A DNA stretch of 64,000 nucleotides from Opitutales bacterium (GCA_051117635.1 JBNPEH010000005.1:110261-174260); one strand, 5' to 3'; counted from the stretch's first letter, positions 19,175 through 31,379 are shown. Numbers and translations are program-made. The notes: generated from the sequence alone by a model not told the origin.

Positions 19175-19250
19175 GGGTCACTAGCTCAATTGGTAGAGCA
19201 GCGGACTCTTAATCCGTTGGTTCTGGGTTCGAGTCCCAGGTGGCCTACCA
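19175..19250 (+). tRNA. tRNA-Lys (anticodon CUU), CCA encoded
   Basis: I folded the cloverleaf by hand. Acceptor GGGTCAC/GTGGCCT. D arm GCTC-AATTGGTA-GAGC. Anticodon arm GCGGA-CTCTTAA-TCCGT. Variable loop TGGTT. T arm CTGGG-TTCGAGT-CCCAG. Discriminator A, then CCA. Confidence 0.9.
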
Positions 19251-19412: not shown

Positions 19413-20147
19413 TCAGGCCCTGGTTCGCCTTCTCCGGTAAAGCAACCCCGCCGAAACGACCAGCCCCAGGAAGAGACCAGAGGTTTCCGCTTCAGGAATA
19501 GCCGTAGCCACGACACCTGGAGACCCGATGTTGCCTGCCTCAAAATTCGCGGTCGCCGTGGACGTTACCGCCCCGTCCGTACCTACCGAAGAGAGCGCCC
19601 AATTGGACCCGTCGTCATTGGAGGTCTGATCGAAAAAGCCCGCCAGGACATAGATCGATTCGCCGTTGGCAGAGTCAGGCCAGTCGGTGGACGAATTTCC
19701 GCCTGGGTTTTCGTAGTTGGCCCAATCGACGGGATTACCGAGGTCGTCCACAATATGGAGCGTTTCATTGGTCGAACCCGGACTTCCGTTTGCGAGATTT
19801 CCCCAATTGCCGATACCCAGGGAAAAGATGGTCGCGGTGGCGGCGGTGCTCCATGCACTTTTAAAGTCCGTCTCCGGAACCTCCGTAATGATGCCCACTT
19901 CACCGGGTGCCAGCGATCCCGATAGTGTCCCCCAATCGCCAGCATTCGCATCCTCGTCATTCAGCTTCCAACCGGTCACATCCACGGTGGAAGACCCGCT
20001 GTTGTATATTTCCACCCACTCCTGACTGCCATCGGCACCGGAAGCATTATACAATATCTCGGTTATTACGATGGCCCCATTCAGCGAGGAAACAGCAAAA
20101 GCCAGACCGGCAAACAGCGGAAAACAACATTTCAGGATCAAAGACAT
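19413..20147 (-). CDS. Secreted lamin-tail-domain (LTD) protein with PEP-CTERM-type sorting signal
   Basis: 244 aa with a signal peptide (CCFPLFAGLAFAVSSLNG). LTD-like motifs are present (ITEILYNASGADGSQEWVEIYNSGSSTVDVTGWKLND). The C-terminus is IPEAETSGLFLGLVVSAGLLYRRRRTRA. Codon usage is atypical, with many NNT/NNA codons. Confidence 0.75.
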   Translation of the reverse strand: MSLILKCCFPLFAGLAFAVSSLNGAIVITEILYNASGADGSQEWVEIYNSGSSTVDVTGWKLNDEDANAGDWGTLSGSLAPGEVGIITEVPETDFKSAWSTAATATIFSLGIGNWGNLANGSPGSTNETLHIVDDLGNPVDWANYENPGGNSSTDWPDSANGESIYVLAGFFDQTSNDDGSNWALSSVGTDGAVTSTATANFEAGNIGSPGVVATAIPEAETSGLFLGLVVSAGLLYRRRRTRA

Positions 20148-20285
20148 GATAGGGTTAAACAGTTTTTTTAATACGCGGTCAACGGCGAAGATGTTATGAT
20201 ATCATTAAATTTAACATATTGTTTATATGTCTATTTCCGGCTAACCCGGTTTCACTAACTTAACAGCGTTTTCATCGGTATCGCT

Positions 20286-20422
20286 ATCGAAATCGCTATC
20301 GACGAAGCGAAGCGGAGATGGCGTATGCAAATCGATTCTGTAAGCTTTTATAAAATAGATGCTTATGCATATTCGATCCCGATTTGCTTACGCCATCTCC
20401 GCTTCGCTCCGTCGATTTCGAT
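20286..20422. repeat. Large imperfect palindromic element (arms of about 47-50 nt, AT-rich 40-nt centre)
   Basis: Left arm is ATCGAAATCGCTATCGACGAAGCGAAGCGGAGATGGCGTATGCAAATCGAT. The reverse complement of the right arm is ATCGAAATCG-----ACGGAGCGAAGCGGAGATGGCGTAAGCAAATCGGGAT. Confidence 0.7.
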
Positions 20423-20476
20423 CCCGATTTGGATCAGGACCCTTAAGTTAGCGCCATTCCAATCAGCCCCTCCCCC

Positions 20477-20507
20477 AAAAGGGCGTCCCCGGAGATGGGG
20501 ACGCCCT
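20477..20507 (-). terminator. Probable intrinsic terminator of katG
   Basis: The minus strand reads AGGGCGTCCCC-ATCTCC-GGGGACGCCCT, an 11-bp perfect stem, followed by TTT. It lies 30 nt after the katG stop. The short T-run lowers confidence. Confidence 0.5.
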
Positions 20508-20537: not shown

Positions 20538-22847
<2,310 letters not shown>

Positions 22848-23150
22848 TTATTGATGCGCGAAGCCGTTTCGGGGTTCAACCCTGCAACCGCTTTCGAGGG
22901 CATAACTACCCAGGCGGGCGCGGGTATCAGGCAGATTCAACCCCGGATAACCCGAGCTGATGCCGACGGGTACCCGCCTCCGGTCGGGGCCCGGAACAGC
23001 CGAATCTTGTGATCCAGGCGAGCGCATTCCCCCCGTACCGCCGGAACGCAATAATCGGGTTGCCTGCATTCCCGGGGTTCCTGGGTTAACCCCTCCTCCA
23101 GGCCGGGATGTGACCTTGCACAGCACCCAGGTCCGGCCTACCACCAGACA

Positions 23151-24392
23151 ATGGCCACGGATACGGCAGGATTCGGGAAAGAGAAAACGGGCGTCGGCGT
23201 CCGCCTGGTGATGGTCCTCTTCGGGCTGCCGTTCCTCGCCGCGGGCCTTGGTTTCCTGTGGTTCGGCGGAGTCAGTCCGCTGATCACCAGCATTCAGGCC
23301 CAGGCCTGGCCTCAGGTCACCTGCACCATCCTGGAATCCCAGGTCATCCGGTCTTCGAGCTCGGACGGCACCAGCTATCGGCCGCACATCGTATTCGAGT
23401 ACGTCTGGACCGGCACCCGGTACACCAGTGATCAGGCAACCGTGGTGAAGCATTCATCCGACGACCGCCAGGGCGCCCGGAAACAGGTCGAGGCCCATCC
23501 GGTGGGTGGTACTGCTCGTTGCTTTGTGAACCCGAACGATCCGTCCAGGGCGATTCTGGACGTGTCTTTGCCCGGCCTGGTCTGGTTCATCATACCCTTC
23601 TCTTCTGTTTTCGTCCTGCTTGGCGGCGGCATCGTCCTTGCCGGACTGGGGATTTTGCCGGATCCGCGATACCGGCGGCTCCACCGTAAAATCAGTGCGG
23701 CGAAAGCCTCCGAACCGAGTGCGGACAACCCGATACGCGGCCTGCCCGCCTACGATCCCAACGAGCGTGACTACCGGACCTTGATGCCCGAAGCGGGACC
23801 GGTTGCCAAGTTTGCCGTTATCCTGGGCTTCGCGCTTTTTTGGAACGGCATCGTCAGCGTTTTTGTCTACCAGGTTGTCAGGGACTTCTCTCGGGGGGAC
23901 GGCTCCTGGTTTTTCGCCTTGTTCATTTCCATTTTTGTCGGGGTCGGGCTGCTCCTGATCGGCGCGGTGGTTTACCAGTTTCTCGCGTTGTTCAATCCGC
24001 GATACACCTTGACGGCGGAACCCGGGCTGCCCCGGCCCGGCGAGACCGTGCGCATCAGCTTTCGGTGCCGGGGAAATTTCCGTCGATTACGACGGCTAAC
24101 CATCACCCTCGAAGGCAAAGAAGTGGCGCGCTATCGACAAGGCAGCAGCACGCGCACCCTGAGTGAGCCCTTCAACCAGCAGGTGTTGTTCGACGAGCGG
24201 GAAACCCAGCGGTTCGGGGCCGGCACCCTTACCGGCACGATTCCGGCCGACAGTTACCCGAGTTTCAAGGCCAGGCATAACGAAATCGTCTGGCAACTGA
24301 CGGTAAACGGGGACGTTCCCCGATGGCCCGATGTGGACAGCACCTACCCCATCATCGTCCTGCCCGACAATCCCCACAGCCACCATGAGTGA
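23151..24392 (+). CDS. Four-TM membrane protein: N-terminal DUF3592-type domain plus C-terminal arrestin-N/Spo0M-like beta-sandwich
   Basis: 413 aa. The segment TM1 - beta-rich domain (WPQVTCTILESQVIRSSSSDGTSYRPHIVFEYVWTGTRYTSDQ...ARCFVNPNDPSRAILD) - TM2 fits the DUF3592 pattern. Two further TMs follow. The C-terminal domain ends in GTLTGTIPADSYPSFKARHNEIVWQLTVNG. Confidence 0.7.
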   Translation: MATDTAGFGKEKTGVGVRLVMVLFGLPFLAAGLGFLWFGGVSPLITSIQAQAWPQVTCTILESQVIRSSSSDGTSYRPHIVFEYVWTGTRYTSDQATVVKHSSDDRQGARKQVEAHPVGGTARCFVNPNDPSRAILDVSLPGLVWFIIPFSSVFVLLGGGIVLAGLGILPDPRYRRLHRKISAAKASEPSADNPIRGLPAYDPNERDYRTLMPEAGPVAKFAVILGFALFWNGIVSVFVYQVVRDFSRGDGSWFFALFISIFVGVGLLLIGAVVYQFLALFNPRYTLTAEPGLPRPGETVRISFRCRGNFRRLRRLTITLEGKEVARYRQGSSTRTLSEPFNQQVLFDERETQRFGAGTLTGTIPADSYPSFKARHNEIVWQLTVNGDVPRWPDVDSTYPIIVLPDNPHSHHE

Positions 24393-24771
24393 GTCCGCCA
24401 ACCAGTTTCTGATCGATTGCCCGGTGACCGCCTGCGAACCCGGCAGCACGCTCGAAGGCACGGCCTACTGGGATTTAACGGAGCCTCCCGAGGTCGTTTA
24501 CATCCGCACCGTCTGGTGGACCGAGGGCCGGGGCGATCGAGACGAGGCCATCATCGACCTGAAGGAATGGACGACCGGCAGCACCGTGGGCAAAGAGGCT
24601 TTTCGGGTTACCCTGCCCGATTGGCCCTGCAGCTTTTCGGGCAAGTTGATCTCCCTTTGCTGGGGTATTGTCCTCGAGGCCCAAAGGGGGGATGTCCCAC
24701 CGGTGGTTCACCGCCTGACGGTCGGTCCCGGCGGTCGGGAAACCATCCTGCATACGGAGGTCGAGTCGTGA
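24385..24771 (+). CDS. Small soluble arrestin-N-like protein (paralog of the upstream C-terminal domain)
   Basis: ATG at 24385 inside track ORF 24331..24771; 8-nt overlap with the upstream gene. Motifs: PGSTLEGTAYWDL...FRVTLPDWPCSFSGKLISLCWGIVLEA. Confidence 0.6.
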   Translation: MSESANQFLIDCPVTACEPGSTLEGTAYWDLTEPPEVVYIRTVWWTEGRGDRDEAIIDLKEWTTGSTVGKEAFRVTLPDWPCSFSGKLISLCWGIVLEAQRGDVPPVVHRLTVGPGGRETILHTEVES

Positions 24772-24844
24772 CTGCGGCGGGCCAGGCTCCGGATGCACGC
24801 CCCGCCGCACCACCACCGTCACCCGATACCCTGTTCCGCACCTG

Positions 24845-25486
24845 ATGCCCCTGCTGGCCCGCCACAACCCCTTCCGTACCAGTCGGCTCGACCGACTGCC
24901 GGTGGAGATCGCCCCGGAGGCCTGGGCCTGGTTCACGGCCGCTGTCGGTGCCCGCCAGGGCCGGGGAGCGTTCATTGGGCCCAAAGGCAGCGGCAAAAGC
25001 ACCTGGCTGAAGGCCTGGCGCGATCACTGTATCCAGGTCGGCGATACGGTTTATTCGGATAAGCTTCGCGACGAGTCCTCGGCCCGGGAGCTTTGCCGGC
25101 TGTTTCGCCGGGTCGCCGCCCTGCCGGCCGACACCTGGCTGCTGATCGACGGCGGGGAACGCCTCGGCCCGTTGGCGGACGGGTGGCTTTGCCGGATCCT
25201 GCGTCCGCGAGGCCGCCTGCTGATGACCCGACACACGCCCGGCAACCTGCCCGCCCTTCCCTATGCCCCGGCGACCTTCGAACAGGCGCGCAGGTGGGTG
25301 GATCACCTGCTCGGCGGGAATCCTGAGGGCCTTGCTTCCCTACCCGACCTGCAGGCTTGCTGGGCCCGAAATCCGGGCGACGCGCGCGCCTTGTTCGAGG
25401 CCTGTTACCTGGGTCTGGCTCAAGGGGAATCCATTGTCATCAGCGGGCCAAACCCTTTCGCTCGTCCACCATGCCGGAACTATTGA
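24845..25486 (+). CDS. Minimal P-loop NTPase, family unassigned
   Basis: 213 aa. Walker A is GPKGSGKST. Walker B-like motif is TWLLIDGGE. I recognise no other domain. Confidence 0.65.
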   Translation: MPLLARHNPFRTSRLDRLPVEIAPEAWAWFTAAVGARQGRGAFIGPKGSGKSTWLKAWRDHCIQVGDTVYSDKLRDESSARELCRLFRRVAALPADTWLLIDGGERLGPLADGWLCRILRPRGRLLMTRHTPGNLPALPYAPATFEQARRWVDHLLGGNPEGLASLPDLQACWARNPGDARALFEACYLGLAQGESIVISGPNPFARPPCRNY

Positions 25487-26184
25487 GTGTCATTCTTCTT
25501 GCCTGGGGAGCGGGCCTGGCCGCCTGGATCGGCGGGCTGGGGGCTCATGCCGAGACCTTTCCCGATTCAAAACTGAAACAGGACATTCTCTTCGGTATCG
25601 TGGCCTTTGGGGGTGGTATCCTGATGGCGGCCGTGGCTTTTGCTCTATTGCCTCAGGGAAAAAACCATCTCTCCCCTGTCTGGGTATTCAGCCTGTTCTG
25701 TCTGGGTGGCATCGGGTTCTGCTCTCTGGACGTTTGGATGGCCCGACGCGGGGGGTCGAAGGCCCAGTTTACGGCTATGGTGGTGGATTTCATGCCCGAA
25801 GCAATGGCGATGGGTGCGGTCTGTGGGGTGGAACCCAGGCTGGCCTTTCTCCTGGCCGGTTTCATCGCCGCCCAAAACCTCCCCGAGGGATTCAATGCTT
25901 ACCGGGAAATGCGGGAACAGGGCTCATCGGGAAGACCGATCCTCAGCCTGCTCCTTGCCGCCACTTTTCTCGGTCCCATTGCGGCGGCTCTGGGCTACTT
26001 GTTTCTTGAGGACGCACCCATCTTTACAGCCGGGCTGATGACCATTGCCGGGGGAGGCATTGTGTATCTGGTTTTCCAGGACATCGCACCCAAGGCGGGA
26101 CAGCAGCGAGCCTGGACCCCGACGCTGGGCGCGGTACTCGGTTTCGGCACAGGCCTGTTGGGCAGCATGCTTCTTCACGGCTGA
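25471..26184 (+). CDS. ZIP-family divalent metal transporter (ZupT-like)
   Basis: ATG at 25471 inside track ORF 25357..26184. It is polytopic, with ZIP-type motifs (FMPEAMAMGAV, AAQNLPEGFNAY, GGGIVYLVFQDIAP). The start overlaps the P-loop gene by 16 nt. Confidence 0.8.
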   Translation: MPELLSVILLAWGAGLAAWIGGLGAHAETFPDSKLKQDILFGIVAFGGGILMAAVAFALLPQGKNHLSPVWVFSLFCLGGIGFCSLDVWMARRGGSKAQFTAMVVDFMPEAMAMGAVCGVEPRLAFLLAGFIAAQNLPEGFNAYREMREQGSSGRPILSLLLAATFLGPIAAALGYLFLEDAPIFTAGLMTIAGGGIVYLVFQDIAPKAGQQRAWTPTLGAVLGFGTGLLGSMLLHG

Positions 26185-26361
26185 GCCCGTTGCCGGGTCC
26201 CAGGGCTCATTGCCCCGCGGGCGTCACCCTTCAACTCGCTCAGGGTTTCAAACAAGCGACGCCCCTACGAAGCGGGCTTCCGGTGCCCGGCTTAGGCGCG
26301 GGCCTCCCCGTAGCGCCCCTGCGGTTGTTCTCAAGAACGAGAGCCACCCCTGGAAATGCCC

Positions 26362-27696
26362 TCAGCTCTGGTACGGCACGCCCGGCACCTCGGGTGTCCC
26401 GTGCGGCTGCGAATAGTGCTGGCCGAAGAAGTCCTCGCTGTTGAGGCACCAGGCATGCAGGCGCTGGCGCATGTCCTGGAGCACCTCGCGGTAACGCCCC
26501 TCGATAGCGAGGTTCACCTGCTCACCGGGATCGGAGCCCCGGTCGAAGAGCTGTTCCCGGTTTTCCCCGAGTTTGTAGCAGACGTATTTGAAGGCGTCGG
26601 TGAGGACAGCCCGGCCTTCCGAATGGGAGCCATTGTTGAATTCGATGACCAGCTCGTCGTGGTCGGGTCCGCTGTCGGAGGCATCGGCGAGCCAGGGCGA
26701 CAGGTCGTTGCCTGCCAGACCGGCCGGCGCATCGATACCGGCGAGGCTGCAGAGCGTCGGCATCAGGTCGAGCCCGTTGCTGACCAGGTTGTCGACGGTC
26801 CGGCCGGGGCGGTCCACGCCCGGTCCGCTGATGATCAGTGGCACGCGAGCGCTCTCGTCATAGGCGGTCTGTTTGTGCCCGAGCTGGTGCGCTCCCGCCA
26901 TCTCGCCGTGGTCGCTGGTGAAGATGACCCAGGTGTCGCGCTCATAGCCGGCGACCTTCAGCCCTTCGAGGATGCGGGAAATTTCGGTGTCCACCTTTTC
27001 ACACAACCGGAACAGGACATGGCGGTATTCGCGCCAGCGATCCGGCGAGAACGCCAGACGACGGCGGGCCCCAGCCAGACCGGGGTCGCGCTCCTGCAAC
27101 CCGATGGCCTCGGGCTCGTAGGGATCGCGGGCAAAGTTGGCGGGCAGGTTGGGCCAGGTGTCGCGGTTGCCGCGGTCCACCTCACCCCAGGGCAGATTCT
27201 GGTTACGCCCGTGCTCGCAGATGTTGTGCGGGTTGTCGAAATTGACCGCCAGGAGGAAGGGCTGCGCGCCATCATGCTCCTGAAAAAACTCGGTACAGCT
27301 GCGCGCGAGCTGGTTGTCGTCGAAGCCGCAGATCTTCCGCCAGCCGAACCCGGTTGCGGGCATGGCGATCTCCGGCACGTGCCATTTCCCGGCGTAGGCA
27401 CAGGTGTAGCCCCGGTCGGCGAACCAGCTGCCCATTTCCTGGGGTTTCAAGGCTTCGGGCCATTCGCCTTTCAGCGAATGAAAGCCGTGCTCCACCGGGT
27501 GTCGTCCGCTGTAGATACTGGCCCGGGACGGTGTGCAGACCGGGTGCGTGCAATAGGCCGAGGTGAACCGCACGCCCTGCCTGGCGATCTGGTCCATAAA
27601 CGGCGTATGCAGGTTGTCGTTGCCGGCGCAACTCAACGCATCATGCGGCTGCTGATCGGTGACGATCAGGAGGATGTTGGGACGGTCCTGAGGCAT
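26362..27696 (-). CDS. Cys-type sulfatase (formylglycine-dependent), no signal peptide seen
   Basis: 444 aa: MPQDRPNILLIVTDQQPHD...CTHPVCTPSRASIYSGRHP, the C-x-P-S-R signature. The protein starts directly at the conserved core. Confidence 0.88.
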   Translation of the reverse strand: MPQDRPNILLIVTDQQPHDALSCAGNDNLHTPFMDQIARQGVRFTSAYCTHPVCTPSRASIYSGRHPVEHGFHSLKGEWPEALKPQEMGSWFADRGYTCAYAGKWHVPEIAMPATGFGWRKICGFDDNQLARSCTEFFQEHDGAQPFLLAVNFDNPHNICEHGRNQNLPWGEVDRGNRDTWPNLPANFARDPYEPEAIGLQERDPGLAGARRRLAFSPDRWREYRHVLFRLCEKVDTEISRILEGLKVAGYERDTWVIFTSDHGEMAGAHQLGHKQTAYDESARVPLIISGPGVDRPGRTVDNLVSNGLDLMPTLCSLAGIDAPAGLAGNDLSPWLADASDSGPDHDELVIEFNNGSHSEGRAVLTDAFKYVCYKLGENREQLFDRGSDPGEQVNLAIEGRYREVLQDMRQRLHAWCLNSEDFFGQHYSQPHGTPEVPGVPYQS

Positions 27697-27774
27697 GCCC
27701 CATCCCAGCCGAAGCGGGAGGCCCGGCGCAAGCTCGGGGCGAACCCCAAGCAGGGACGAACGCCTGGCGTGCGC

Positions 27775-27865
27775 CCGTGGCCGCGCCTTCAGGCGTGGTT
27801 GATTACGGTCGGAGCGTCCTGCTGTATCCCAAAACGGCTGTCCACGCCTGAAGGCGCGGCCACGG
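27775..27865. repeat. Perfect 24-bp inverted repeat with a 43-nt spacer
   Basis: 27775-27798 (CCGTGGCCGCGCCTTCAGGCGTGG) is the exact reverse complement of 27842-27865. A further 7-bp hairpin, GTCCCGC-AGAGA-GCGGGAC, lies at 27871-27889. Confidence 0.85.
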
Positions 27866-28119
27866 ATGCTGTCCCGCAGAGAGCGGGACTTCGGAGTGCG
27901 GTAGCCATATTTCCGCCTTTTTTAAATCCAGGAAACAAGGTGTGCGACAACTCCAAGCCAACATGGGGGCGATGGCTTGCTCAAAGGCGGCGGCATGGCC
28001 GCCGCACTCTACGGTCCGGCGATGCCGGACGGCCGCATCTGTAGGGCTGCCGCTTGCGGCACGCCGACGGACCTGAGGGTGAGGACAAGCGCTGGCTTTA
28101 GAATCGCCTACAACGCAAC

Positions 28120-29154
28120 CTACCAGCTCCAGGGCTCGGGATCGTAGCGGAAGACGGCTTCGCCGGTCTGCTTGACATGGCCGAGCGACGGGAAGGACCA
28201 GTGGTAGGCCATGACCCGGGCCCGGTCGGCGGCCACCTTGCGGAGGATTTCCTTGCGCGTTTCGGCGGCCTGCATCGGATTCACATCGAAGCCGAAGTGC
28301 CAGTCGGGGTTTTCCAGGTAAAGCGCACTGTGGTTGGCCGTGTCGGACAACTGAAGGATGCTCTCCCCATCCGATTCGATGCGCACACCGACATGACCGG
28401 GGGTATGGCCGGGCAGCGGCACCAGGGTGACCCCGGGCTTGAGCGTCGCATCCATGGCCACGGTCTGCGTGACGTCCTTCAGGTTGCGCAGGATGCCCGC
28501 GGTTCGGGCAAACATGTCCGCCATACCGGCCATGTCCGGATCCTCGCGCATGGCCTCGATCTCGGCTTCCGTCCGGGTCCAGAAATTCGCCTCGGGCCCC
28601 GACAACACAAAGGTGGCATTCGGGAACCGGTTGCGCCCTGCGCCGTCGACGACACCCCAGAGGTGGTCGGGATGCGCATGTGAGATCACCACGTGTGTGA
28701 TGTCTTCGGGACGGAAACCGGCATGCTTGAGGTTTTGGATCACATGCCCGTTGTCCCCGCCCATCGCACCGCCGGTTCCTGCATCCACCAGAATGCGTGC
28801 GTCGCCAGTCTCGATCAGGGTGGTATTGAGCGTCGTGCTCAGCGATTCGGTCGGCAGGAAATGATCCCGCAGCGCCGCCCTCACCTCCTCCGCCGTGGCC
28901 ACCGAACCGCCGATGGTCGGATGCGGCGATCCCAGTTGGATGGTGCCGTCGCTGATGACGTAGACCGCACGCTTGCCTACCGTAAACCGGTAGTAGCCGG
29001 CGCCCTGCGGCAGGGGATCCGGCGCGGGTGAAGGGGCTGACGGCTCCGCAGCGGACAGACGCGCACCGGTACCGAGCAGGCCGGCGCCGGCCAGGCTGGC
29101 AGCGAGGGTTTTCAGGGACTGGCGACGATTCATGAAGCGGGTGTACGAAGTCAT
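28120..29154 (-). CDS. Tat-exported MBL-fold metallo-hydrolase
   Basis: 344 aa. It has a twin-arginine signal (MNRRQSLKTLAASLAGAGLLGTGARLSAAEP) and the HxHxDH motif (ISHAHPDHLWG). Confidence 0.85.
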   Translation of the reverse strand: MTSYTRFMNRRQSLKTLAASLAGAGLLGTGARLSAAEPSAPSPAPDPLPQGAGYYRFTVGKRAVYVISDGTIQLGSPHPTIGGSVATAEEVRAALRDHFLPTESLSTTLNTTLIETGDARILVDAGTGGAMGGDNGHVIQNLKHAGFRPEDITHVVISHAHPDHLWGVVDGAGRNRFPNATFVLSGPEANFWTRTEAEIEAMREDPDMAGMADMFARTAGILRNLKDVTQTVAMDATLKPGVTLVPLPGHTPGHVGVRIESDGESILQLSDTANHSALYLENPDWHFGFDVNPMQAAETRKEILRKVAADRARVMAYHWSFPSLGHVKQTGEAVFRYDPEPWSW

Positions 29155-29348: not shown

Positions 29349-31379
29349 TCATTCCAGACCGTACCGTTGCCGGACGTCGGGGCCGAGTGCCTCCTTGAGC
29401 GGATCCAGCCAGGGCTCGAAGTGTTTCCAGACGTCGACACCCGACCGGTTGATCGGCTGGCGCACCTGTTCGGAGCTGGGCGTGCGGACGGTCCGCTTCG
29501 TTTTGTGGAAATCCACACAGGCCGCGTCGAAGGGCAGCCCGCAGAAATCGAGCATGCGCCGCACCTGACCCTCCAGGTCCTCGATGACGTCCTCGTGCTG
29601 CACCCGCAGGACGAAGCCGGGCAGGACGCGGTCCCAGTGGTCCATCAGGCGAACGTAGTCCTTGTAGTAACGCCCCGCCCACGCGAGGTCGTAGGTGAAG
29701 TCCTGGCCTTCCCCGAAAAGCTGTTTGTATCCGCTGAAGCAGCACGCCATCGGGTGGCGCCGGGCGTCGATGATTCTGGCCTTCGGCAGGATCAGCCGGA
29801 TCAGACCGATGTGCAGGAAATTGTTGGGCATCTTGTCGATGAAATACGGCGCCTTGCCCCGGTAGACGCGGGTCTGCTCAATGAACTGCTCGCCGAAGCG
29901 CCGGAAGTAGTCGGTCTTCAGCTCGCGGAGGATTTGCGGATAGCGATCCGACTGTTCGGCCGTCCGCCCGCGCAGGCGCTGGGCCAGCCCGAGGATGTTG
30001 TGCAGCTCCATCGTGCCGTCGACCTGCGGGTGCGAGGCGAGGATCTGCTCCAGCAGCGTCGAGCCGGCCCGCGGCAGGCCGAGGATGAAGATGGGATCCG
30101 GCGCGTCGCAGCCCAGCCCGCCGCGGTCGGCAAACAGGTCCTCGGTGCAGACCTCGATCTGGCGGTCGACCATGGCCTCGGTCTTGTCGGGGCTGTAACC
30201 CGACCGGCGGGTTTTCAGCGCATTGCCCTGCCGGTAAAACCTGAAGGCGTCTTCGTAGGCCTGGCGGTCCTCATAGGCCTTGCCGGCCGCAAAACACAGG
30301 TGAGCGCGGTCCTCGTCGTCGATGTCGGGGTGCTCTATCTGCTCGCGCATCCGCTCCAACTCTGCGTCCGCGAACCGGTAGGTCTTCGTGTTGGCCAGGC
30401 TCCAGTAGGCGTCGCCGTAATCCGGTTTCAGGCGGAAGGCCCGCTGGTAGGCGTCGATCGCGGCGTCCAGGTTACCCACCGCTTTTTCGGCGTGCCCCAG
30501 CATGACGAGGACTCCCGCCTTGTCCGGCGCCGTATCCAGACAACCGCGCAACCGCCGGATCCCTTCCTCGAATTCACCCAGCCCGGTCAGCGCATTCGCC
30601 AGCGCCAGCTGGAAGGCAGGGTTGTTCGGCTGCGTCTTGAGCAGAATCTCGGCCTGCTCCCGCGCGGGCTGAAACTTCCCCTTGCGGTTGAGCACCTTCA
30701 GGTAGTCCATCCGTGCCCCGAGGTGCTTCGGATCGAAGGCGACCGCGCTCTCCAGCAGAAATTCCGCGTCGTCGTAGACCTTGAGCCGGATACCGATTTC
30801 GGCCAGCAGCCGCATGCCCTCGATGTGCTGCTTGTGCTGCTGCAGGAAGCCGCGGCAGAGCTGCTCCGCCTTTTTCAAACGGCCCTCGTGCATGAGGTCG
30901 GTCGCGCCCTGCAATTCGGGCGGCAGCTGCTCCAGGTAATCCGCCTGGGCGCGCGCGAAGCGGGCTTCTTCCTGGCGGTCGTTTTCCGCATGCAGCGCGG
31001 CCAGCGCCTGCCAGCTGGGCAGGAGCCCGGGGTTGCAGTCAACGGCCCGGGCAAAGGCTTCAGCAGCCTCGGTCTTGCGGCCGGTATTGGCCAGGTTGTA
31101 GCCCTGTTCCTGATACGCCCGGCCATAACCGGGATTTCGCTCCAGCAACTGATTGAGCGTATCGAGGGCCCGGTCGTAGGCCTGCTGGTAGCGCTGCGCG
31201 ATGGCCCGGATGTAGCAGGCCTCGCCGAACTGGTCGGGATCGAGATCGCGGCTCATCAGCGGTTCGACGGCGCGTTCGGCCTGCGAAAACTGACTGGCCT
31301 GAATACAGGTTTTGGCCTGCTTGAGGACATCCGCCGTGGGCGGCCAGTCTTTCGGTTGGATGGAGGGTGGTTCGCTCAC
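29349..31379 (-). CDS. TPR-repeat protein fused to a C-terminal sulfotransferase domain
   Basis: 676 aa. The N-terminal part carries TPR repeats. The C-terminal part has a PAPS-binding-type motif (PIFILGLPRAGSTLLEQILASHPQV) and a sulfotransferase-like tail. Confidence 0.8.
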   Translation of the reverse strand: MSEPPSIQPKDWPPTADVLKQAKTCIQASQFSQAERAVEPLMSRDLDPDQFGEACYIRAIAQRYQQAYDRALDTLNQLLERNPGYGRAYQEQGYNLANTGRKTEAAEAFARAVDCNPGLLPSWQALAALHAENDRQEEARFARAQADYLEQLPPELQGATDLMHEGRLKKAEQLCRGFLQQHKQHIEGMRLLAEIGIRLKVYDDAEFLLESAVAFDPKHLGARMDYLKVLNRKGKFQPAREQAEILLKTQPNNPAFQLALANALTGLGEFEEGIRRLRGCLDTAPDKAGVLVMLGHAEKAVGNLDAAIDAYQRAFRLKPDYGDAYWSLANTKTYRFADAELERMREQIEHPDIDDEDRAHLCFAAGKAYEDRQAYEDAFRFYRQGNALKTRRSGYSPDKTEAMVDRQIEVCTEDLFADRGGLGCDAPDPIFILGLPRAGSTLLEQILASHPQVDGTMELHNILGLAQRLRGRTAEQSDRYPQILRELKTDYFRRFGEQFIEQTRVYRGKAPYFIDKMPNNFLHIGLIRLILPKARIIDARRHPMACCFSGYKQLFGEGQDFTYDLAWAGRYYKDYVRLMDHWDRVLPGFVLRVQHEDVIEDLEGQVRRMLDFCGLPFDAACVDFHKTKRTVRTPSSEQVRQPINRSGVDVWKHFEPWLDPLKEALGPDVRQRYGLE

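Follow-up and report, generated by a model that had tools for sequence, protein, structure and literature searches.

The genes described here, g1, g2 and g3, lie one behind the other on the plus strand of a 64,000-nucleotide (nt) stretch of an Opitutales metagenome-assembled genome (MAG; GCA_051117635.1, JBNPEH010000005.1:110261-174260), which we call the window and along which all positions were counted, and they are followed by a fourth gene, g4. In the NCBI annotation g1 is named 'DUF3592 domain-containing protein', g2 and g3 are each named 'hypothetical protein' and g4 is named 'ZIP family metal transporter'. An earlier note on this DNA had described the four genes as one uncharacterised operon next to katG, and its coordinates, gene overlaps and quoted motifs were all confirmed in the open reading frames (ORFs) and their translations. 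The ATG of g2 at 24385 overlaps the end of g1, whose TGA is at 24390-24392, and both are within ATGAGTGA; g2 and g3 are separated by 73 nt, and g4 starts 16 nt inside g3. When the region was scanned for promoters and terminators and against Rfam, neither a sigma-70-like site nor an Rfam match was found in the spacer between katG and g1, and the promoter and terminator scan gave no standout signal. The positions of the genes and of their features are given in Table 1.

Table 1. Genes and features of the g1-g4 locus, by position in the window. TM, transmembrane helix; pLDDT, predicted local distance difference test score.
Feature	Residues	Position	Strand	Description	Basis or conservation
katG		20538-22796	-	divergent from g1	
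katG-g1 spacer		22797..23150		354 bp; presumed home of the trio promoter	
g1		23151..24392	+	413-aa polytopic membrane protein: DUF3592, four TM helices, arrestin-like domain	ORF; 350 relatives
g1 TM1	15-51	23193..23303	+	long helix; N-terminal flank net positive	AlphaFold
g1 DUF3592 beta domain	56-138	23316..23564	+	predicted extracytoplasmic; conserved Cys58, Cys124	Pfam
g1 TM2	142-165	23574..23645	+		AlphaFold model
g1 linker	166-216	23646..23798	+	predicted cytoplasmic; basic, variable in length	pLDDT 52-78; gappy columns
g1 TM3-TM4 hairpin	217-279	23799..23987	+	helices 217-247 and 253-279	
g1 arrestin-like beta-sandwich	284-401	24000..24353	+	predicted cytoplasmic	pLDDT 92-98
g2		24385..24771	+	128-aa soluble arrestin-like domain protein, proposed second lobe	ORF, family profiles
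g2 signature LPDWPCSFSGKLISLCWGIVLE	77-98	24613..24678	+	arrestin-type 'LP..P.SF.G' strand pair	
g3		24845..25486	+	213-aa minimal AAA+ ATPase, alpha/beta core and helical lid	ORF, AlphaFold, Foldseek
g3 NPF motif	8-10	24866..24874	+		N8 invariant, P9 and F10 at least 90% (alignment A2)
g3 Walker A GPKGSGKST	45-53	24977..25003	+		G48, G50, K51 invariant
g3 Walker B WLLIDGGE	98-105	25136..25159	+		D102 invariant, G103 at least 90%
g3 GDAR	178-181	25376..25387	+	consensus GNLR	G178, R181 at least 90%
g4		25471..26184	+	237-aa divergent ZIP-like transporter, local neighbour outside the conserved module	ORF

In g1 the match to Pfam DUF3592 (PF12158) had an E-value of 3.5e-15 and 56.9 bits against a cutoff of 25.3, and as it is above the gathering score and is flanked by the first two TM helices, g1 belongs to this family; this is the only curated sequence threshold that was passed among the family assignments of g1, g2 and g3. 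An AlphaFold model of g1 made with an alignment of 118 homologues had a pLDDT of 89.2 and matched the layout that had been read from the sequence, that is, a TM helix, a beta domain (residues 55-126 in the model), a second TM helix, two further TM helices and a soluble domain. The TM3-TM4 hairpin is the best conserved stretch of the protein (FWNGIVS ... LFxIPFVLVG ... LALFNPR); W231, N232, G233, F258, F262, G266, N282 and P283 were invariant in alignment A1, and in the 118-sequence alignment A6 N232, F262, G266 and P283 were invariant and W231, G233, F258 and N282 were conserved to at least 90%. Lys and Arg make up a fraction of 0.33 of the stretch that follows TM2, and a net positive charge is also found at the N-terminus and in the segment after TM4; the positive-inside rule thus predicts that in this inner-membrane protein DUF3592 faces the periplasm and the beta-sandwich the cytoplasm. 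Cys58 was kept in 106 of the 118 sequences and Cys124 in 112, and we infer that this pair would fit an extracytoplasmic disulfide.

When the C-terminal sandwich of g1 was compared with the PDB by Foldseek, the N-lobe of ARRDC3 came first (4r7x, E 4.7e-8, TM-score on target 0.57-0.61) and was followed by Spo0M, ARRD-6, TXNIP, VPS26, beta-arrestin and Rgp1. The 50 best PDB matches of g1 were nearly all chains of the arrestin clan and the rest were Slo1 beta subunits, which aligned with the N-terminal module. Judged from the model, this list is specific for the arrestin clan and not generically Ig-like, and residues 284-401 appear to form an arrestin-type beta-sandwich, as had been anticipated for residues of about 285-413. 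An hhalign comparison of this domain with a TXNIP sequence entered by hand gave no signal.

Most g1 homologues are 550-585 amino acids (aa) long because the TM-DUF3592-TM module is duplicated in tandem (for example L020:5854-7527 and L040:5893-7587; P0010-P0125), and the g1 of the window is the shorter, single-module form. The homologues of about 575 aa were considered as g1-g2 fusions and this was rejected, since BLAST showed that it is the N-terminal module that is duplicated. The TM-DUF3592-TM module (23193-23645, residues 15-165) also matched the BK/Slo1 beta4 subunit (6v22_E) with E 3e-6 over about 200 columns at a TM-score of about 0.3, and sub-threshold matches to Pfam CaKB, the BK-channel beta subunits, were seen in 22 of 95 members of the g1 family. 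Like the N-terminal module of g1, these subunits have two TM helices and an extracytoplasmic, Cys-containing beta loop; at such a TM-score the resemblance is weak, and it may reflect either a distant relationship or convergence. Among the viral structures in BFVD the best matches to the g1 model were short two-TM DUF3592 proteins from giant viruses (Tupanvirus, Pandoravirus, Megaviridae and Pithovirus), none of which had an arrestin-like part.

The g2 protein is soluble, and in an alignment of 80 members (A3) its family has the signature PGET..G...W...LRLFW.T.GKGT.D...F.F.LP..PYSFSGKLISL.WALE, in which P78, P81, G86 and W93 were invariant and S83 and F84 nearly so. When these 80 members were searched against Pfam the only recurrent families were Arrestin_N, matched by 16 (best E 2.5e-4), and Arrestin_C, matched by six, the next family being matched by two. 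Likewise, when the g2 profile was searched against all PDB sequences the only matches were N-domain chains of TXNIP, with an E-value of 0.04, aligned on FELPQGPLGTSFKGK, and hhalign placed g2 on the same motif of TXNIP, the sequence of which was again entered by hand, with P 5e-4. These sequence comparisons support the arrestin kinship that had been proposed for g2, which may thus be called a free arrestin-like domain. The g1 and g2 of the window have no match to a Pfam arrestin model, no match to these models at the curated threshold was found for g1 or g2, and Pfam Spo0M matched none of the g1- or g2-family members that were scanned.

The shared early and late motifs on which g2 had been called a free-standing paralog of the last domain of g1 proved to be conserved columns of both families, F372, N377 and W381 being invariant in g1, and the two domains were colinear on these motifs over 106 columns; the hhalign P was 0.002 with a probability of 13%, so that what holds of this claim is that they would share a fold family and are only distantly similar. 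Natural fusions of the two exist as well. Fusions and domain boundaries were called from the envelope coordinates of hidden Markov models (HMMs) together with a same-ORF test, by which several apparent fusions were rejected as ORFs that, the DNA being GC-rich, had been extended too far in another frame. Those in which the g1 C-domain is followed by g2 were P0061, P0070, L004 and L045, and in L004 the two envelopes are about four codons apart. The order in the fusions is that of the two lobes of an arrestin, and these rare fusions suggest that the two domains work together as lobes. In the window the two are not in one chain but are split between g1 and g2. A PPxY motif was found in none of g1, g2 and g3. 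At equivalent positions both domains have a conserved Gly/Thr/Asp-rich hairpin loop (g1 328-336 'YRRGTDTxTD', g2 44-53 'W.T.GKGT.D'), which is a family-specific signature and possibly an interface to the ATPase or a ligand site.

The third protein had been described as an NTPase with Walker A and Walker B motifs that could otherwise not be placed. Both motifs are present and conserved in the family, and the protein can now be assigned. Its AlphaFold model (pLDDT 89.5) has an alpha/beta core with parallel strands and, after it, a lid of four helices; the strands of three or more residues are at 40-44, 69-73, 97-102 and 123-129, with a two-residue strand near 137-138, and we read the core as five-stranded. 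The lid helices span residues 145-192, and GDAR is by the helix at 180-192. In Foldseek against the PDB the best matches were a chain of the human OCCM complex (ORC-Cdc6-Cdt1-MCM; 8s0e_G), RFC small subunits, MuB, RuvB, TRIP13, MgsA and IstB as well as a chain of the S. cerevisiae ORC-Cdc6 complex, with E-values down to 8.5e-6 and TM-scores on the query of 0.4-0.6, and the alignments with RFC, RuvB, the OCCM chain and ORC-Cdc6 spanned core plus lid. The family profile aligned with RFC3 from Walker A through the lid (residues 44-183). In view of this core-plus-lid model, the PDB matches and the RFC3 alignment, g3 is a minimal AAA+ ATPase whose nearest relatives are RFC, Cdc6/ORC and RuvB: it has Walker A and B on an additional-strand, catalytic-E (ASCE) core and a helical lid with a putative sensor-2 arginine. 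We take GDAR to correspond to sensor 2 by its likeness to GDAR/GDMR/GSLR of Cdc6, RFC and DnaX, and NPF to correspond, presumably, to the N-terminal box of clamp-loader AAA+ proteins. The family consensus in alignment A2 is GPxGSGKT for Walker A and hhhDG(A/G)E for Walker B, with T-x-H after strand 4, and at the C-terminal end it is GNLR...LYD where the window has GDAR...CYLG. No Pfam or NCBIfam family of its own exists for g3, the window protein has generic P-loop matches in Pfam, and no extra domain was found in it. Sub-threshold matches of family members were to nSTAND_NTPase5 (51 of 71) and NACHT (38 of 71), with weak ones to AAA_16. The g3 protein ends after the lid at 190-213 aa, with no winged-helix domain or sensor repeats as in STAND proteins; the weak NACHT and nSTAND matches reflect the nucleotide-binding domain only. 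In the window the C-terminal tail extends beyond the end of the family and has a second NPF, in GPNPFARP (residues 203-205, 25451-25459), where model confidence is low.

The conservation of these genes was followed with a profile scan of one genome per species (about 185,000 species), which gave 350 relatives of g1, for 80 of which the loci were fetched, and HMMs of the g1, g2 and g3 families were applied to all ORFs of 84 related loci. In 66 of the 84 independent loci g1, g2 and g3 were found in this order on one strand; g1-g2 without g3 was found in 13, some of them at contig ends, g1 alone in four and g2 alone in one. Thus a g2 homologue stood behind g1 in 79 loci and g3 behind g2 in 66. 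In 22 loci g1 and g2 overlapped by 4 nt and in nine by 1 nt, and the median spacing between g2 and g3 was -1 nt (62 loci), so the gap between them in the window is on the long side. An independent exhaustive search for the g3 family gave 775 representatives at E < 0.001, and for those picked at random the gene immediately upstream was g2-sized or was a g1-g2 fusion. The loci come from Acidobacteriota (30, most of them Thermoanaerobaculia and Holophagae), Verrucomicrobiota (25) and Planctomycetota (17), with others from Desulfobacterota, Bdellovibrionota and Lentisphaerota (Victivallis) and from one gammaproteobacterial MAG. In 67 of 75 cases the nearest g1 relative was in the same phylum, which shows that the trio has been inherited largely within phyla.

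Of the four-gene unit that had been proposed, the first three genes were indeed kept as neighbours in related genomes, and the rest was not. A ZIP homologue was found in none of the 84 loci, including those of the closest Opitutales relatives (L005-L008 and L010), and the same was true of katG; both adjoin the trio only in this genome. No conserved fourth gene emerged from all-against-all BLAST of the flanks and Pfam searches of the 134 nearest neighbours: the commonest flanking protein family was present in at most 12 loci, the nearest flanking genes were equally frequent on both strands, and the Pfam content of the flanks was mixed housekeeping (TPR proteins, NAD-dependent DNA ligase (ligA), TauE, ExbD, TsaD and ATP synthase epsilon). 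The conserved unit is therefore a self-contained three-gene module, g1-g2-g3, and not a quartet, and the ZIP gene is a chance neighbour in this genome with no functional tie from the comparative data. In one locus, of a metagenomic relative (L001:1172-6139), a g1-g2 pair without g3 stands directly after genes for a hemQ-like protein, a ferrochelatase and a HemY-like oxidase on the same strand.

The explanation that we prefer for these data, and to which we give a little better than an even chance, is that the trio is an ATP-switched, membrane-tethered arrestin-like adaptor. Because natural fusions join the g1 C-domain and g2 in exactly that order, the tethered lobe of g1 and the free g2 are proposed to pair, on the inner side of the membrane, into an arrestin-like clamp of two lobes, a step for which we see the chances as evenly balanced. 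By analogy with small clamp-loader and initiator AAA+ proteins, g3 might act on this clamp as an ATP-dependent switch, by assembling, releasing or remodelling it, and this is put forward tentatively, with the odds somewhat against it. It is more doubtful still that DUF3592 and the TM hairpin would link the clamp with a cue from the envelope or with another membrane protein as partner, and that the complex would adapt the cytoplasmic parts of unlinked membrane proteins.

Several observations weigh against the adaptor explanation. Among the 13 g1-g2 loci without g3 several have room downstream, so that g3 need not accompany the pair. An output or effector domain cannot be recognised in the module, and for this reason the client and the physiological role are guesses. 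The Walker B of g3 is DGxE instead of the usual DE, and in the candidate for sensor 1 or the arginine finger, T-x-H-(R), H130 is invariant and the Arg is not fixed, the window having TRHT. On the arrestin side, all the Arrestin_N and Arrestin_C matches of the g2 family are below the Pfam thresholds, the g2 of the window has no Pfam match of any kind, and the sequence likeness between g2 and the g1 C-domain is weak at the hhalign probability given above.

When the parts are compared with known systems, the best structural match of the g1 C-domain is to the alpha-arrestins (ARRDC3, TXNIP/VDUP-1, C. elegans ARRD-6, yeast ARTs), which share the strand motif 'F.F.LP..P.SF.G' with g2 and act at the cytoplasmic face of the membrane, where the trio is also predicted to act. 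The alpha-arrestins, however, are eukaryotic proteins with the two lobes in a single soluble chain, and they work by PPxY motifs that recruit HECT ubiquitin ligases of the Nedd4/Rsp5 type, whereas in the trio the lobes are on two genes, the first lobe is on a four-TM anchor, PPxY is lacking and there is an AAA+ partner. VPS26 and VPS26C (retromer and retriever) and Rgp1 share the arrestin fold and are adaptors reading the cytoplasmic tails of membrane cargo; they differ in being eukaryotic and two-lobed and in working in coat or guanine nucleotide exchange factor complexes, and none is TM-tethered. To our knowledge the arrestin fold in bacteria is known essentially only from Spo0M, which is soluble and, as far as we know, lacks a DUF3592 domain, a TM anchor and an ATPase partner of its own. 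Spo0M of Bacillus subtilis (PDB 5cl2), a bacterial arrestin-type beta-sandwich, matched the g1 model at E 3.8e-6 and has been described as an arrestin-fold protein (Alvarez 2008, PMC2515105). The clamp-loader and initiator AAA+ proteins (RFC small subunits, Cdc6/ORC, RuvB, MgsA, MuB, IstB) resemble g3 in core and lid, Walker A and B, a GxxR and an N-terminal motif before the first helix; g3 differs from them in its size of about 190-213 aa, in having no collar, winged-helix or DNA-binding domain, in its Walker B and in being encoded beside membrane and arrestin-like partners. Within the DUF3592 family most members are short two-TM proteins, and a TM hairpin followed by an arrestin-like domain is found only in the g1 subfamily.

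An explanation that overlaps with the adaptor and does not exclude it is that the trio serves some unlinked complex of the envelope, for example a glycosyltransferase, a machine that handles cytochromes or heme, or a channel, as an accessory or assembly factor, with DUF3592 as a two-TM auxiliary subunit. A preprint has predicted a mycobacterial DUF3592 protein as a cofactor of the mannosyltransferase MptB (10.64898/2026.07.15.738315), and the resemblance of TM-DUF3592-TM to BK beta4 together with weak Pfam matches to CaKB, CcmH and CCB1 points the same way, as do the heme-synthesis genes before g1-g2 in L001 and katG next to the trio in the window. The CcmH and CCB1 matches are weak and may reflect TM composition only, and the neighbourhood holds no conserved partner. 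The apparent link to heme (katG here, hemQ/hemH/hemY in L001 and the CcmH/CCB1 matches) was judged to be coincidental because the pattern does not recur in other loci. Since, moreover, the arrestin lobes and the ATPase would be left unexplained, we regard this as improbable as a full account.

A conflict or defence role, which the earlier note had kept as an option, would make the trio an anti-phage system in which a membrane sensor and an AAA+/STAND-like NTPase trigger abortive infection via the membrane protein. The sub-threshold STAND-type matches of the g3 family could be taken in this sense, and the DGxE of its Walker B in our estimation resembles the DGxDE of NACHT proteins; the occurrence of DUF3592 proteins in giant viruses and the patchy spread of the trio, with 350 relatives in genomes of about 185,000 species, would also fit. 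DUF3592 proteins have, in addition, been found beside LXG toxins of the type VII secretion system (PMC12482557). However, the PADLOC-DB 2.0 models matched none of the four proteins at E-values up to 1, g3 had no match in phage genomes by tblastn, and the g1 profile had none in 2.9 million viral contigs. The flanks, moreover, hold ligA, tsaD, ATP synthase and heme synthesis genes and are not defence islands, relationships follow the phyla, and no nuclease, protease, TIR or pore-toxin domain occurs in the trio. With these searches all negative the defence option found no support, and we consider it quite improbable.

Lower still stands the mechanism that had originally been suggested, in which the four genes are one system and the ZIP transporter is gated or trafficked by the arrestin-like proteins together with the NTPase, perhaps in response to metal or, through katG, oxidative stress. 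Its arrestin part was borne out by Foldseek, and eukaryotic alpha-arrestins do control transporters (PMC9105457). Since g4 starts inside g3 it is also probably co-transcribed with the trio in this genome. That g4 may be a ZIP importer is, for its part, suggested by the NCBI name and by weak matches to Pfam Zip, with 24.3 bits where the cutoff is 35.1, and to NCBIfam ZupT (E 9e-5), with 21.9 bits where it is 252, so that both are below the curated cutoffs. It has two ..PE(G/A) motifs inside TM helices, and in its metal-site motifs, DFMPE and QNLPEG, it differs from ZIP/ZupT, where these motifs are HNxPEG/HExPE, in having D and Q at the positions of the metal-binding His; no ZIP structure in the PDB was matched by sequence. 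What counts against the gating mechanism is that the ZIP and katG homologues are missing from all the related loci, so that it has no comparative support, that the gene after g3 has either orientation with about equal frequency, that the 134 flanking genes include no recurrent family related to metals, and that g1 and g2 have no PPxY and no ubiquitin-type machinery was found. As a general model it is already largely refuted and must be considered very unlikely. That the four ORFs have no functional link and are merely packed in a compact genome, as the frequency of long spurious ORFs in a region of 63-67% GC and the lack of a standout promoter or terminator signal might suggest, is excluded for g1-g3 by the conservation of their order and overlaps in six phyla and by the gene fusions, and the chance that we leave to it is negligible.

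Elsewhere in the window, two long antisense ORFs, 24608-25306 (-) of 232 aa over g2 and g3 and 26356-28044 (+) of 562 aa antisense to a sulfatase gene, were rejected as genes, as spurious ORFs of this kind are typical where the DNA is GC-rich. Beyond the ZIP gene on its downstream side, as judged from the translations, are a sulfatase-like gene at 26362-27696 (-), a gene for a metallo-beta-lactamase-fold protein with a Tat-like signal at 28120-29154 (-) and a TPR and sulfotransferase-like gene at 29349-31379 (-). On the other side a tRNA gene is at 19175-19247 (+; Rfam 69 bits), and beside it 19413-20147 (-) encodes a 244-aa secreted protein with a PEP-CTERM-like anchor end, …IPEAETSGLFLGLVVSAGLLYRRRRTRA. 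Between this gene and the 3' end of katG the GC content drops to 0.45 at 20000-20499, compared with about 0.63 around it, and there is no Rfam match there.

Returning to the arrestin-like adaptor, the trio and the architecture of g1 were not described in those papers of the searched literature that mention DUF3592, and searches of it for bacterial arrestins gave only the link to Spo0M. The earlier note had known of no described system of this composition; our search likewise found no counterpart for a split, membrane-anchored arrestin with a dedicated AAA+ protein, the parts of which are of known fold. Arrestin-fold adaptors are central to the regulation of membrane proteins in eukaryotes, and the PVC bacteria (Planctomycetota, Verrucomicrobiota, Chlamydiota) are often discussed for their eukaryote-like membrane biology. 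It may be, although we think this unlikely in so full a form, that the trio is a prokaryotic arrestin machine in which a tethered and a free lobe, switched by their own AAA+ protein, select or regulate membrane proteins, with DUF3592 as the periplasmic input; such a machine would be widespread in PVC bacteria and Acidobacteriota and would correspond, in bacteria, to the arrestin and VPS26 cargo adaptors of eukaryotes, to whose ancestor it is possibly related. If so, this would be the first role for DUF3592. Short of that, a misleading lead, the control of a ZIP transporter and the tie to metal stress, has been removed, and three families so far without a function, DUF3592 and the g2 and g3 families, the latter two of which have no Pfam model, now have concrete partners. 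Cultured carriers, among them Victivallis vadensis and Thermoanaerobaculum, make genetics and biochemistry feasible. What the comparison brings to light in PVC bacteria and Acidobacteriota, where it is concentrated, is a conserved bacterial module in which two predicted arrestin-like lobes would be tied both to a membrane anchor and to an AAA+ ATPase of their own.

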